Below the pieces are notes generated by a model. That model was not told where the DNA came from, did no database searches, and saw nothing but the letters and a program-made list of their open reading frames with translations. From NCBI GenBank assembly GCA_963813025.1, contig CAWEXO010000014.1, forward strand, positions 160,001 to 224,000: DNA of 64,000 nucleotides. The letters run 5' to 3'. This DNA is from an uncultured Verrucomicrobiae bacterium (GTDB taxonomy: Bacteria; Verrucomicrobiota; Verrucomicrobiia; Chthoniobacterales; JAFAMB01). Positions 3,994 through 53,487 of the stretch are shown one piece after another (position 1 is the stretch's first letter; each line of letters begins with the position of its first letter). A program made the translations under genes and the position numbers.

Positions 3994-4407
3994 TCATTTC
4001 AGGAGCTTTTTGATCTCGACCGCAAGCAACTCGGCACGCTCGCGGGATTGCGACCCGAACCAGATGCAGTCGTAAAATTCCGGCAGCTTCGTACAGGCAA
4101 CACGAACATTCCTCTTTCGCGGAAGCCTGGCCACAAAGCGAATCACCCAGTACCCACGAATTAGTCCCAATTTGTTTTCTAAGTAGAGAGGATAAGTCTT
4201 GAATGCCTGTATTTTTATTACCGCTAGATTACGGTTTTCCCATTCGGCAATAGATTGAAGAATTTCGCCGACGAGTTCTTTGAGCTTAACCGCGTGTTGA
4301 TAAGATTGCTGGTCCGCAAACGCAGCGATCCAGAGAGTCGGAAACGCCAGCGAAACAACTACGAGGAGAGCAACGTTCATCCTAGTAGGGAAGATCGTCA
4401 GGGTCAC
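3994..4407 (-). CDS. Hypothetical protein
   Basis: 137 aa ORF with one hydrophobic segment; lower GC; no family recognised. Confidence 0.35.
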   Translation of the reverse strand: MTLTIFPTRMNVALLVVVSLAFPTLWIAAFADQQSYQHAVKLKELVGEILQSIAEWENRNLAVIKIQAFKTYPLYLENKLGLIRGYWVIRFVARLPRKRNVRVACTKLPEFYDCIWFGSQSRERAELLAVEIKKLLK

Positions 4408-4496
4408 ACTGCGTTCAAGTCCCGCGGCAGGGAGCTAAGGAATCCGCGAGTCAACCTGAACGAATCCGCCCCGCAACATGGCCTTGGCCCTGCTCT

Positions 4497-4615
4497 GGTA
4501 GGGCGAAAATTTATCCGAGCCATAGCGAGGACTCGTTTGAGCCGGACACTGGAGCTGCCACACCGAAGACGGCTCAAACAAGTTCTCGCCTGGTGCTCGA
4601 ATAGATTTTCGCCCT
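4497..4615. repeat. REP/REPIN-like hairpin repeat, copy A (interrupted by IS110; its ACCGG end continues at 5939)
   Basis: Long imperfect palindrome GGTAGGGCGAAAAT...TTTGAGCCG...CGGCTCAAACAAGTTCTCGC...ATTTTCGCCCT, also seen at four other loci. Confidence 0.9.
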
Positions 4616-4649
4616 TGTACCTTGCCCCACCAATTTTTTTTCCCTTTTA

Positions 4650-4860
4650 AAGCCGCCCGCAAGGGCGGAACTCTGGAGGTGAAGAACTTGGCCGAGGAGG
4701 GTGGAAAACTGCCTCGCCCAAAGGTCGGTAGAACCTGTCCGGTAGATTAGTCCACCCTTCCTCGTGCCGCACCTGCATAAGACCGTACCGTATCTTAGGC
4801 CGTTCCAAACAGGGTTGGAACATAAGCCCGTGTTCACAAGGCTCTGTCAGCAGGCGCGCG
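4650..4860 (+). ncRNA. Putative bridge RNA (5' hairpin, target-binding loop, donor-binding loop); ends approximate
   Basis: Hairpin CCGCCC-GCAA-GGGCGG at 4653-4668. Stem 4690-4705/4751-4768 encloses TCGCCC (4714-4719) and CCGGTAG (4739-4745). Stem 4772-4776/4850-4854 encloses ACCGTATCT (4787-4795) and ACAAG (4836-4840). Confidence 0.85.
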
Positions 4861-4910
4861 CCCAAGCGCTTCATCAAACAAAGAACCAATTCAACTCGAA
4901 TTCCTGTCTG

Positions 4911-5921
4911 ATGAAAAAACGCTACTGCATGGGTATTGATATGGCAAAAGCAAGCTTTGACTTTTGCCTGCTCTCCAAGAATGGCACTCGCCTGTGGCGG
5001 GGAAAGTTCAGCAATGATGCGACCGGCATTGGAGCATTTTTAGCCCAACTCCAGGCCCGCTCTTGGCCGCTCTCCCAGATCCACTTCGCCCTGGAAGCCA
5101 CCGGGGTCTACGGGAAGAGATTGATCGCCGCTCTGCACCAAGCAGGCTTGGCGGTCAGCGTGCTCAATCCCGCCCAAGTCAAATACTTTGCTTTCTCGGT
5201 CCTGCGCCGCACCAAAAATGATCGGGTTGATGCGGCCATCATTGCCCAGTTTTGTCTGGAGCGAAAACCACTGGCCACTCGGCCGCTGCGCCCCCTTGAG
5301 GAAGAATTCAAACTGCTGGTGCGGGAGCGCGAAAGCCGGGTTGGCGAGCTCATCCGGGAACAGAACCGGGTGAAAAAAGACCCTTACCCAATTGCGCTGC
5401 CCGAGCTTGTCAGCCAACAGCGTGGCCAACGACTCGCCCAGCTCAAGAAAGAAATCGCTCAGCTGGAGTCGGCCATCTTCGGCTTAGTCGCGGCTGATCA
5501 GGCTTTAAGCCGCCAAAGCCAACTGCTGTGCTCTATTCCCGGCATTGCCCAGCTCACAGCCGCCAAGCTGCTGGCCGAGCTGGCCGGTAAAGAGTTCCAA
5601 TCGGCTCGGCAGTTGGCGGCCTATGCTGGGCTGAATCCTTCTGAATTCCGTTCCGGTGTCTCGCTCTACGGCAAAACCACCCTGTGCAAAATCGGCAACG
5701 CTTTCCTGCGCAAAGCACTCTATTTGCCGGCCGCCGTTGCTCGCCGCTGGTGCAAACCCATCCAGCAATGGGCCGCAGGTCTCGAGTCGCGCAAGCTCCA
5801 CTCCCTGGCTATCCGCGGTGCCGTCATGCGAAAACTCCTGCACATCGCCTTCGGTGTTCTCGCTCACCAACAACCCTACAACCCTAACCTGGCCCGCCCT
5901 TCCTTAAAGCAATGCCCTTGA
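4911..5921 (+). CDS. IS110-family DEDD transposase / bridge recombinase
   Basis: Most likely start is ATG 4911 (MKKRYCMGIDMAK). RuvC-like GIDMAK, EATG and KNDRVDA motifs; C-terminal SIPGI, LAAYAGL.P...SG, GN..LRKALY and RKLLHI motifs. The frame is intact. Confidence 0.95.
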   Translation: MKKRYCMGIDMAKASFDFCLLSKNGTRLWRGKFSNDATGIGAFLAQLQARSWPLSQIHFALEATGVYGKRLIAALHQAGLAVSVLNPAQVKYFAFSVLRRTKNDRVDAAIIAQFCLERKPLATRPLRPLEEEFKLLVRERESRVGELIREQNRVKKDPYPIALPELVSQQRGQRLAQLKKEIAQLESAIFGLVAADQALSRQSQLLCSIPGIAQLTAAKLLAELAGKEFQSARQLAAYAGLNPSEFRSGVSLYGKTTLCKIGNAFLRKALYLPAAVARRWCKPIQQWAAGLESRKLHSLAIRGAVMRKLLHIAFGVLAHQQPYNPNLARPSLKQCP

Positions 5922-5923
5922 CA
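5918..5923 (+). promoter_or_regulatory. -35 box (TTGACA) of the IS circle-junction promoter; -10 half (TACCTT) at 4618-4623
   Basis: Perfect TTGACA overlaps the stop codon. Joining the ends through one CT gives exactly 17 nt to TACCTT (TAnnnT). Confidence 0.8.
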
Positions 5924-6029
5924 TCCAAGACCGTATCTACCGGTTGTGGGCAATCGTGGTGAGCCCGGTCAATTGTCTCGCAAACGGAGCGGGTGAGCGG
6001 TCGAACCCGGAACGACCGACTGAAGGATT

Positions 6030-6215
6030 GCGGCGCGACCTTCGTGCCGATGACCAGCTCCCGGGACTTGGGCGGCGCCGGGGTCTGGCCCCCGGCCTGC
6101 TGCGTTTGCGCGAGCACCGCGCTGCCGCAGGGCAGCGAGCTACGGATCCCAATCGACCGCACTCAACGGCGAGGCTTGGGCGCAAGTATTTGGTGGTCGG
6201 CGGCGGCGACTGACC
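6030..6215. pseudogene. Back-to-back fragments of a second SBP family 3 / GluR0-like gene
   Basis: Minus strand reads AVLAQTQ...RELVIGTKVAP (N-terminal piece). Plus strand reads ALPQGSELRIPID and is nearly identical in DNA to about 2622-2661. Confidence 0.5.
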
Positions 6216-7394: not shown

Positions 7395-8260
7395 TGAATT
7401 GCTCCCCAAAATCTGGACAGGTTCGCTAAGATCGAAAAAAGACCTGGAGATGAACGGCAAGAAAGCTGGCGTGAGGCGCCGCCGACAGCATAGCGCGACC
7501 CTAAAGGCACAAGGGGCCCTGGAGGCCATTCAAGAACGTCGGACCCTCAACGAGATCGCCTCTGAATAGGGCGTGCACCCGACGCAAGTTTCGGCGTGGA
7601 AACGCCAAGCGGTCGAAAGCCTGAGCGGGTTTTTCGACGGGGAGATTGGGGTGGGCGACCAGGAATTCAGACGTAGCGCTAATCTGGTGCTGATGAGCCG
7701 CCCTGGACCGACTCTATCTATACCCGCTGGCCCTTTTAGCGGGGTACGCCGGATGACCCTTGCGTTGCACGACCAGGGTTGGCCCGTCAACCACAAGCGA
7801 ACCCGCCGCTTGATGCGCCTCATGGGACTGGAAGCCGTTTATCCCAGGCCTCGCCTGAGCTCCAACGGCGGCGCACACCTGCGTTTTCCCTATCTGCTCA
7901 AAGGCCTGCTCATCGAGCACCGCAATCAGGTCTGGTGTAGCGACATCACTTACATCGGGTTAGCCGAAGGCTTTGTTTATCTTTTCGCCTTAATGGACTG
8001 TTCCGAGGAGGTCTATTTGCGTGAGCACGACTCCGTCACCGAGGCCTGCGGAGTATCGGTCGCTACTTCTCCTTCTACAACGATCAGCGGCCGCACAGCA
8101 GTCTTGCCAATCGGTCGCCTGCTGCCGTATATAACAGAATCCCTACAAAACTCCGACAAAAGGTAGCGCGGAAGAATCGCCTGGTTTTCCCCGCTCCTTT
8201 TGAAGGAAATTTATAGCTAACAAACCCATCGAACCTGTCCAGACGATGGGGAGCACCTGA
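7395..8260 (+). mobile_element. Degenerate IS3-family element (internally deleted)
   Basis: 31 bp imperfect terminal IRs at 7395-7425 and 8230-8260 (25/31 match). OrfA HTH has an in-frame TAG (EIASE*GVHPTQVSAWK). OrfB remnant reads VNHKR..RLMRLMGLEAVYPRP, YLL and NQVWCSDITYI. Confidence 0.88.
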
Positions 8261-45896: not shown

Positions 45897-46209
45897 TCGA
45901 GCTATGGTTCGAAAGGGAGGTTCGAGGGATGTCCCAAGGCGTCTTTGCTCCTGCGCCGGTAGGGCGATCCGCCTTGGCGGCCGAGCGCCAGGCGAGAACT
46001 TGTTTGGCGTGTCCGCCATAGCCTTGGCGAAGGCGGAGCCATCTGGAGCGGGTGGCTCACCCAAGGTCCGGCTCAAATAAAGAGAGTGTCTCGCTGGCGC
46101 TCGAATGAATTTTCGCCCTACCGGTCGTGGGTCAGCGGATGTTGCGAGACATTCTCTAAATTTTCGCCCTGCGCAGGATACTGCGGCATTCTGAGACGAT
46201 CTCTAGCGC
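45897..46209. repeat. Composite REP/REPIN-like repeat, copy B (core 45956-46124)
   Basis: Core CCGGTAGGGCGA...TCGCCCTACCGG; both flanks are shared with copy E. Confidence 0.9.
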
Positions 46210-51899: not shown

Positions 51900-52032
51900 C
51901 GGTAGGGCGAAAACTTGTTTGAGCCGGACCCCGAGTGGCCACCGTCCAAGACGGCTCAAACAAGTCCTCGCTTGAAGCTCCTCCTTCGCTAAAGCTTCGG
52001 CGGATACGTCGGATAAATTTTCGCCCTACCGG
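51900..52032. repeat. REP/REPIN-like hairpin repeat, copy D
   Basis: CGGTAGGGCGAAAA...TTTTCGCCCTACCGG with TTTGAGCCG/CGGCTCAAA inner stem. Confidence 0.9.
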
Positions 52033-53247: not shown

Positions 53248-53487
53248 TCGAGCTATGGTTCGGAAGAGAGGTTCGAGGGATGCGCCCCAAGGCGCCTTTG
53301 GTCCTGCGCCGGTAGGGCGAAAATTCATTTGAGCCGGACGCTTGGGTGAGCCACCCGCTCTAGATCGCTCCGCCTTCGCCAACGCTATGGCGGACACGTC
53401 AAACAAGTTCTCGCTGAGGCTCGTCCGCCAAGGCGGATCGCCCTACCGCCACAGAACAATGCGGCATTCTGAGGCGATCTCTAGCGC
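53248..53487. repeat. Composite REP/REPIN-like repeat, copy E (core 53309-53448)
   Basis: Flanks are in the same orientation as copy B; the core is the reverse complement of the copy B core. Confidence 0.9.

Follow-up and report, generated by a model that had tools for sequence, protein, structure and literature searches.

An IS110-group insertion sequence with a predicted IS621-like bridge RNA in an uncultured soil Verrucomicrobium

Known bridge-RNA elements and the verrucomicrobial element

The bridge RNA of IS621, an IS110 element of Escherichia coli, is described as a 5' stem-loop followed by a target-binding loop, in which a stem encloses a left guide, a hairpin and a right guide, and by a donor-binding loop built alike (PMC11208160, PMC11208158). 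The left guides of IS621 pair with the bottom strand and the right guides with the top strand, the core being included in each pairing (PMC11208160, PMC11208158), and once the strands have been exchanged, the two handshake bases that lie 3' of each right guide pair with the other DNA at positions 6-7. The left donor guide of IS621, A123-C130, does not pair beyond the first core base, and the right one is made of A157-U158, two flipped-out bases (U159-U160) and G161-G165 (PMC11208158). Here we describe an insertion sequence that is very probably a bona fide bridge-RNA element of this IS621-like kind. It occupies positions 4616-5938 (+) of a 64,000-nucleotide stretch of DNA, hereafter the window, from an uncultured Verrucomicrobiae bacterium (Chthoniobacterales, JAFAMB01; assembly GCA_963813025.1, contig CAWEXO010000014.1, positions 160,001 to 224,000 of the forward strand). 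Its anatomy, its homology to IS621, its site specificity, the covariation of its guides with their targets and its recent mobility are all shown by the sequences.

Mechanism and architecture have been known from IS621 since 2024, and bridge RNAs are predicted in 85.7% of the catalogued IS110 elements (PMC11208160); the initial annotation of this DNA rightly treated the class as known. What is new is this orthologue, and the picture of how IS110 elements work is left unchanged. Elements of the IS1111 group (seekRNA or bridge RNA) have a recombinase of the same family and RNA-guided target choice, and are described with a short left and a long right end, sub-terminal repeats of 7-17 bp and an RNA in the right end (PMC11208160). 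The element described here, in contrast, has a left end of 295 nt, a right end of 17 nt, a repeat of 4 bp and its RNA in the left end. Because of its long left end, its short right end and the RNA in the left end it is placed in the IS110 group and not in IS1111. ISPpu9 and ISPpu10 of Pseudomonas putida are multicopy IS110-family elements that all lie in one repeated intergenic palindrome, as the present element does (PMC12288879; 10.64898/2026.03.19.712850), and they differ from it in host and target.

The left junction reads TCGCC-CT/TGTAC, with the CT core at 4614-4615, and the right junction reads ACCGTAT-CT/ACCGG, with the CT core at 5937-5938, so that the element measures 1323 bp including the right CT copy. 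The left target half (positions 1-7, TTTCGCC) and the left core stand at 4607-4615 (+), and the right target half, ACCGG, at 5939-5943 (+). The left donor, ACCGTAT, and the right core stand at 5930-5938 (+), and are identical in 12/12 two-ended copies of the genome. The full target is thus TTTCGCC-CT-ACCGG and the full donor ACCGTAT-CT-TGTAC. A sub-terminal inverted repeat of 4 bp, CTTG at 4621-4624 (+) and its reverse complement CAAG at 5926-5929 (+), both taken from sequence reading, brackets the 14-bp donor, and there are no long terminal inverted repeats; for the IS110 group a sub-terminal repeat of 2-3 bp is described at the donor flanks (PMC11208160). The leader, or left non-coding end, covers 295 nt (4616-4910) and the right end 17 nt (5922-5938). 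When re-read, the junctions, the CT core and the length of the non-coding leader are as the initial annotation had them.

The recombinase gene lies at 4911-5921 (+), from an ATG at 4911 to a stop codon at 5919-5921, and codes for 336 amino acids. The Pfam model PF01548 (DEDD_Tnp_IS110) matches residues 8-155 with an E-value of 9.3e-32 and PF02371 (Transposase_20) matches residues 204-281 with an E-value of 1.1e-21, and the NCBIfam model NF033542, 'IS110 family RNA-guided transposase', scores 207 bits against a cut-off of 140. Two structure chains are matched, the IS621 transposase 8wt6 (E 1.2e-45, residues 5-327) and the ISCro4 transposase 9t56 (E 5.5e-44, residues 5-328), which is a homologous recombinase whose likeness is seen in the protein alone. 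Probably 9t56 is the IS622 recombinase of the 2025 human-genome preprint. When the protein is aligned by HMMER to 8wt6, whose chain numbering is offset by 2, residues D10, E62, D104, D107 and S248-G249 stand opposite the catalytic residues of IS621, which are D11, E60, D102, D105, S241 and G242 (PMC11208158), and are predicted to be catalytic themselves. The claim of an intact DEDD and serine recombinase homologous to that of IS621 is thus borne out by Pfam, by NF033542 and by the aligned residues. A longer open reading frame (ORF) from GTG 4764 was rejected as a mere in-frame upstream extension, since the relatives align from residue 1 of the 336-amino-acid form.

Apart from the domains and the aligned DEDD and Ser-Gly residues, the element shares with IS621 the long left and short right ends, the CT core, the layout of the RNA and the strand sense of the guides (PMC11208160, PMC11208158), a right donor guide of two and five bases around two flipped-out ones and the handshake complementarity at position 7 (PMC11208158), and a candidate -35 box in the right end and insertion into a repeated palindromic element (PMC11208160, PMC11208158). 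The donor of IS621 printed in PMC13396178 is identical to the present one at 12/14 positions; the initial annotation had cited an IS621 donor as close to the one here, and that string is found in the donor oligonucleotide of the same paper, with 2/14 differences. The two elements differ in host, E. coli against a soil Verrucomicrobium, and in target, which is ATCAGGC-CT-AC in IS621 (PMC11208160) and TCGCC-CT-ACCGG here. The natural right target guide has 7 paired bases here and 4 in IS621, and a left guide whose pairing ends at the first core base is found in the target loop here and in the donor loop of IS621 (PMC11208158). The two loop modules measure 81 and 85 nt here against 65 and 68 nt in IS621, and are spaced by about 1 nt in the consensus fold against about 11 nt, the RNAs being compared by description.

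At E <= 1e-40 the recombinase has a match in 1/400 other sampled genomes of the phylum, with 40% identity, and was not found in the rest. The whole element has no match in 5,426 E. coli genomes (blastn, distant mode), and a tblastn search of plasmids returned 1296 records, all below 60% identity. A match on an E. coli plasmid (H28, locus L043), considered as IS621 itself, was rejected, its ends lacking the IS621 donor string. In the supplements of PMC11208160, which were readable in part and do not show absence, five peptide strings and the donor string gave 0 matches, and 2 of the 10 Verrucomicrobia rows were compared, neither being like this protein. The nearest relatives are metagenome bins, and in these sources, as far as the supplements can be read, there is no sign that this orthologue has been named. 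With it the IS621 bridge recombinase gains a natural orthologue in Verrucomicrobiota, a distant phylum, and guides, handshake bases, target and donor can all be read from its sequence. Such orthologues are raw material for genome-editing tools and for finding general features of the RNA, for which the bulged right donor guide, the handshake at position 7 and the left guide ending at the first core base are candidates.

Guides, covariation and fold of the leader

Four guide strings had been proposed in the leader and all of them are present at the proposed places, TCGCCC at 4714-4719, CCGGTAG at 4739-4745, ACCGTATCT at 4787-4795, identical to the right end at 5930-5938, and ACAAG at 4836-4840. 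Their layout was said to be that of IS621, and the strand sense of all four agrees with the definition in PMC11208160. The left target guide, CCUCGCCCA at 4712-4720 (+), has the top-strand sense of the target and pairs with positions 3-8 at the window site (6/9), or with positions 2-8 where a site has C at position 2. The string TCGCCC is therein present and matching; its pairing, however, ends at the first core base, and the ninth base of the guide, A, faces the second core base and is unpaired. The right target guide, CCGGUAG at 4739-4745 (+), is complementary to CT-ACCGG at 7/7 positions. The left donor guide, ACCGUAUCU at 4787-4795 (+), equals the right end and core at 9/9 positions. For the right donor guide, ACAAG had been correctly placed, but the guide as mapped here is longer and consists of the 9 nt GU[UC]ACAAG at 4832-4840 (+), in which GU pairs with positions 14-13, UC is bulged out and ACAAG pairs with positions 12-8. 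The handshake guide of the target loop, AU at 4746-4747 (+), is complementary to donor positions 6-7 (AT) and not to target positions 6-7 (CC), and that of the donor loop, GC at 4841-4842 (+), pairs through its G with target position 7 (C), its C being unpaired at position 6. In 20,000 dinucleotide-preserving shuffles of the leader, TCGCCC, CCGGTAG, the left-donor string and ACAAG are found singly in 2898, 371, 6 and 6563, respectively, and all four together in 0/20,000.

A scan with one genome per species gave 22 loci, from four Verrucomicrobiota assemblies at 46-77% protein identity and from Proteobacteria and Deinococcus at 35-39%. Pairing was tabulated for 15 elements from 5 lineages. These do not count as separate observations, the independent events being the few changes between lineages; L024 and L041 (5'-truncated), L026 (contig end), L028 and L038 (partial), L035 (tandem repeat at the left end) and L029 (left end unplaced) were omitted from the table. 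The right target guide pairs with the core and right target at 7/7 positions in 10 elements, at 6/7 in 1, at 5/7 with a wobble in 2 and at 5/7 in 2. The left donor guide pairs at 8-9 of 9 positions in all 15 elements and the right donor guide pairs as two and five bases around a 2-nt bulge in all 15. In this last guide the bulged pair alone varies among copies and relatives (UC, GG, GA, UG, UU), and the paired bases are fixed or change with the donor. The AU handshake of the target loop pairs with donor AT in 15/15 elements and never pairs fully with its own target. In the donor loop the first handshake base pairs with target position 7 in 15/15 elements and the second in 0/15, and a G-T wobble with the own donor is possible. 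Covariation of the handshake at position 7 in both loops has been reported across orthologues (PMC11208158).

Guide and target change together in several relatives, a comparison that the initial annotation had suggested as a check. In the L030 family (46-51% protein identity, 6 copies tabulated) the target is (T/C)TGCGC-CT-TTGTG, the left guide is UUGGCGCCU, which contains GGCGCCU, and the right guide is CACAAAG, pairing at 7/7. In this family the last donor bases are TGTAT and the right donor guide begins with AU in place of GU, so the change from C to T at position 14 goes with a change from G to A in the guide. In L025 the right target is ACCGT and the guide ACGGUAG, again at 7/7. In the L021 family (4 copies) the right target is ACCTG or ACCTT and the guide UAGCUAG, with position 13 compensated and position 14 a wobble or a mismatch; an internal mismatch of this family is taken up below. 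The right end, right target guide and handshake of L029 (53% protein identity) fit by eye, and in the Rhodanobacter loci L036 and L037 (35-36%), also read by eye, CU is part of the left guide and 4 bases of the right guide are paired.

One copy of a 49% relative, L035, shows a feature of its own at the left junction, where the first 11 left-end bases and the core are tandemly repeated three times, about 80 nt upstream of the 5' stem-loop.

The fold was derived from 8 aligned leaders. Besides that of the window element, they comprise three from diverged copies in this genome and four from relatives whose recombinases share 76, 77, 53 and 49% identity with that of the window; these leaders are related to one another, and the structure was tested on the alignment from which it was derived. 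RNAalifold returns a 5' stem-loop and two stem-enclosed loops. With the guides left open the consensus has 54 pairs, with 93.5% of the cells paired against 39-52% when partners are slid by 1-3 columns, and two-sided (compensatory) changes occur in 14/54 pairs, against 4.7 +/- 1.5 in shuffles (0/500 reach 14) and 1-4 when slid. The two large loops of the initial annotation therefore stand in the consensus of the 8 leaders; the minimum free energy fold of the single sequence pairs some guide bases with each other.

The 5' stem-loop, at 4653-4668 (+), has 6 G-C-rich pairs, all 6 invariant in the 8 leaders, and a GNAA tetraloop in which N takes all four letters (GCAA, GAAA, GUAA, GGAA). The target-binding module extends over 4689-4769 (+), with an outer stem formed by 4689-4705 and 4751-4769 (helix 3, 17 pairs, 7 with two-sided changes, 93.4% of cells paired) and an inner hairpin at 4722-4736 (+) (helix 4, 5 pairs, 92.5% of cells paired), whose loop does not follow the target in relatives. 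The donor-binding module extends over 4771-4855 (+), with an outer stem formed by 4771-4776 and 4850-4855 (helix 5, 7 pairs, 3 with two-sided changes) and an inner hairpin at 4798-4828 (+) (helices 6-8, 10 pairs, 4 with two-sided changes).

A 193-nt contig of the soil metagenome run X3, at depth 53, matches window positions 4722-4750 and 4857-4879 and has 108 other letters in place of the intervening 106. It may come from a relative with a different donor loop; with less than 95% likeness and short matching sides, another organism is possible as its source.

Target repeat, copies and movement

The target of the element is supplied by a palindromic repeat of about 125 bp, of which it takes up the 12 outermost bases. 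This repeat is abundant in the genome, which was searched as an assembly of 16 contigs and 4.42 Mb, 80% complete. The empty 12-mer, TCGCCCTACCGG, occurs 95 times against 0.5 expected, and forms with one mismatch occur 174 times. The first ten bases are found at 231 sites, among which there are 64 pairs of neighbours in facing orientation, spaced in most cases by 113-115 nt. Since the sequence between such facing sites is conserved, the repeat unit is a palindrome of about 125 bp; its inner flank is conserved (...GGCTCGAATAAATTT) and its outer flank variable. The other end of the unit in which the window copy is inserted is an unoccupied one-mismatch target, TCGCCCTACCAG, at 4495-4506 (-), read by eye and lying 114 nt from the occupied end, which fits the modal spacing.

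The element has 20 matches in the genome. They include 7 full-length copies with 99-100% identity, one copy of 1243 bp, two of about 1010 bp and one of 630 bp, and further one copy interrupted by another element, a left-end remnant of 509 bp and a fragment of 141 bp. The CT core is found at both junctions in 12/12 two-ended copies, and a single type of site is used throughout: 12/12 lie between TCGCC-CT and CT-ACCGG, with TCGCC-CT in 11 and TCGCT-CT in 1 and with ACCGG in all, and the 509-bp remnant also follows TCGCC-CT. Insertion of other copies in unrelated targets, which the initial annotation had named as evidence against its proposal, was thus looked for and not seen among the two-ended copies of this assembly. 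Occupancy depends on the exact site, as 11/106 perfect sites are occupied against 1/175 sites with one mismatch (Fisher p = 1.3e-4), and sites that differ only at position 13 or 14 are occupied in 0/117 cases (p = 2.1e-4). The genome thereby offers a natural experiment on specificity. On the tentative three-layer reading given below, a natural right target guide of 7 bases and a left target guide ending at the first core base would be what achieves discrimination among about 270 near-identical repeat ends.

Three of the incomplete copies have peculiarities of their own. In the interrupted copy, C9:67089-69145 (-) (locus L012 1856-3249), element positions 297-1011 are replaced by about 1.45 kb with overlapping ORFs of 119 and 345 amino acids, which by translation resemble the gene pair of the IS3 family. 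The 1243-bp copy, C8:36968-38210 (+), lacks about 80 bp internally (element positions ~700-780) and has a longest ORF of 309 amino acids. The 141-bp fragment, C4:5754-5894 (-), is an orphan piece of the bridge RNA gene, 94% identical to element positions 99-239; it starts exactly at the left target guide TCGCC, which is fused to TCGCC of the genomic repeat, and extends to the 3' arm of the donor-loop stem, and it could be a product of half-site recombination or of microhomology.

The 336-amino-acid ORF is kept intact in 7/7 full-length copies, with 0-5 amino-acid differences from the window copy, and the guides are invariant among these copies, the single changes lying outside them. An empty site is found in contigs of the soil metagenome run X1, where one contig of 782 nt joins 4613 to 5937 and omits exactly 1323 bases, with 2 ambiguous bases, and fixes the boundaries of the element independently. 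To judge from the 99-100% identity of the copies, their intact ORFs and the existence of an empty-site allele, the element is recently mobile, and its description in the initial annotation as probably active is in keeping with the sequences.

Deletion derivatives of the element are C15:123618-124627 (-) of 1010 bp, C9:218161-219171 (+) of 1011 bp and C12:154618-155247 (+) of 630 bp. The two of about 1010 bp are identical to each other at 1005/1010 bases (99.5%) and about 88% identical to the full-length family, and each occupies a target copy of its own, with flanks unlike those of the other; the 630-bp one is of the same lineage (614/627 aligned bases identical). In all of them the bridge RNA region is complete and the two ends are retained, and their longest ORFs have 260, 103 and 67 amino acids. 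In the assembly, 80% complete, no full-length parent of this lineage is found. Most likely, as far as their sequences tell, these derivatives were moved by a recombinase supplied in trans. For ISPpu9 a derivative like a miniature inverted-repeat transposable element has been proposed to move with transposase in trans (PMC12288879), so the derivatives here are not new in kind. They differ, compared by description, in that the ISPpu9 derivative carries a downstream small-RNA gene (PMC12288879), whereas those found here have lost internal sequence and retain the bridge RNA region and the ends. A tentative and somewhat doubtful extension is that the genome holds a three-layer system, with a master element, recombinase-dead derivatives that bear a bridge RNA and are apparently moved in trans, and about 100 empty targets at the ends of palindromic repeats. 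If this were true, miniature elements carrying a bridge RNA could spread by using the recombinase of a relative.

Homology with IS621 suggests how RNA, promoter, circle and reaction chemistry would work together. The element would leave the chromosome as a circle, whose joined ends would form the 14-bp donor ACCGTAT-CT-TGTAC and would bring TTGACA, a candidate -35 box at 5918-5923 (+) that overlaps the stop codon, upstream of TACCTT, a candidate -10 box at 4618-4623 (+) proposed from sequence reading and from analogy with IS621 (PMC11208158). On the joined circle the two are separated by 17 nt (5924-5938 and 4616-4617), and TTGAC is found at the same distance from the right end (hexamer + 15 nt) in 6/6 verrucomicrobial element types. 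This junction promoter would drive a bridge RNA of about 230 nt (about 4630-4860) and then the recombinase, a protein with a DEDD RuvC-like domain and a Tnp domain and with Ser248 as the predicted nucleophile, which would bind the RNA. In the target loop the left guide would pair with the bottom strand of TCGCC-C and the right guide with the top strand of CT-ACCGG, and the donor loop would pair likewise with ACCGTAT-CT and CT-TGTAC. The strands would be cut after the CT core and exchanged with the help of the two handshake guides, so that the element ends up between two copies of CT.

Alternative readings and minor features

Before 2024 the protein alone was assumed to pick the target, and the leader could then be a 5' untranslated or regulatory region that resembles the ends by chance. 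This explanation is hardly credible here, for no shuffle among the 20,000 contains the four guide matches jointly, in relatives the guides follow changes of target and donor, compensatory changes are seen in the stems and the homologue IS621 is experimentally RNA-guided (PMC11208160, PMC11208158). It is also very improbable that the guides are mismapped, either through another register of the loop or through the inner hairpin loop, whose near-duplicate CGGUAGA (4726-4732) would be the real right target guide. CGGTAGA does occur twice, at 4726-4732 and at 4740-4746, and the left target guide lies one base further 5' of the inner hairpin than in the L030 family. However, in L025, with its right target ACCGT, the 3' segment alone changes (to ACGGUAG) and the hairpin loop remains CGGUAGA, and in L030 the hairpin loop CUAGGA does not fit TTGTG, which the 3' segment CACAAAG fits at 7/7. 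Because the near-copy in the inner hairpin loop fails to follow the target in L025 and L030, it is not the guide, and the order of stem, left guide, hairpin and right guide is that of IS621 (PMC11208158). The four guides as mapped above are therefore retained.

Several observations weigh against a working bridge-RNA element with these guides. Of the 9 positions of the left target guide only 6-7 pair, the second core base being left without a partner, and the target loop of IS621 strongly prefers pairing with both core bases (PMC11208160); since the left donor guide of IS621 stops at the first core base, there is a precedent for such a left guide, though in the other loop. The right target guide of the L021 family has an uncompensated internal mismatch at position 11. 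In the single-sequence minimum free energy fold (z = -2.7) parts of the guides pair with one another, and Rfam 15, searched at a permissive threshold over 4400-6100, returned no bridge-RNA family and three weak unrelated matches (mir-127, SL1, sR32; E >= 0.44). Transcription, the ends of the RNA and the promoter are supplied by analogy: the candidate -10 box agrees with TATAAT at 3/6 positions, below the 4-of-6 rule for the second hexamer in the promoter search, and no sigma-70-like site is found within the integrated copy, so a junction promoter is deduced from IS621. The 14-mer of the circle junction has 0 matches in the assembly, and no circle joint is seen in the contigs of runs X1-X3, in which rare forms cannot be revealed. 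Finally, the empty-site contig differs from the window at 8/469 flank bases, for which reason it probably comes from a close strain that lacks the insertion and is not an excision product.

Some of these points are also what would be expected of a genuine bridge-RNA element that is now silent, its copies recording a past burst. The absence of the circle junction from the assembly and from the X1-X3 contigs, the weak candidate -10 box with no promoter-like site in the integrated copy, the sub-optimal pairing of the left target guide at the core, and the flank differences of an empty-site allele that may belong to a strain never hit, all fit such silence. We nevertheless regard it as improbable, because all 7 full-length copies keep the 336-amino-acid ORF at 99-100% DNA identity, close strains differ in whether they carry the insertion, no full-length copy has a change within the guides, and bridge RNA expression from integrated copies is reported to be weak in IS621 anyway (PMC13626964). 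An IS621-like element of recent mobility is the reading that we prefer.

Elsewhere in the window, further target sites of the element are found at 45956-45967 (-), 46113-46124 (+), 52021-52032 (+) and 53309-53320 (-). Downstream of the element, at 7573-8166 (+), an ORF of 197 amino acids, whose translation is like the catalytic part of an IS3-type transposase, lies beside short broken frames and is possibly a decayed insertion sequence.

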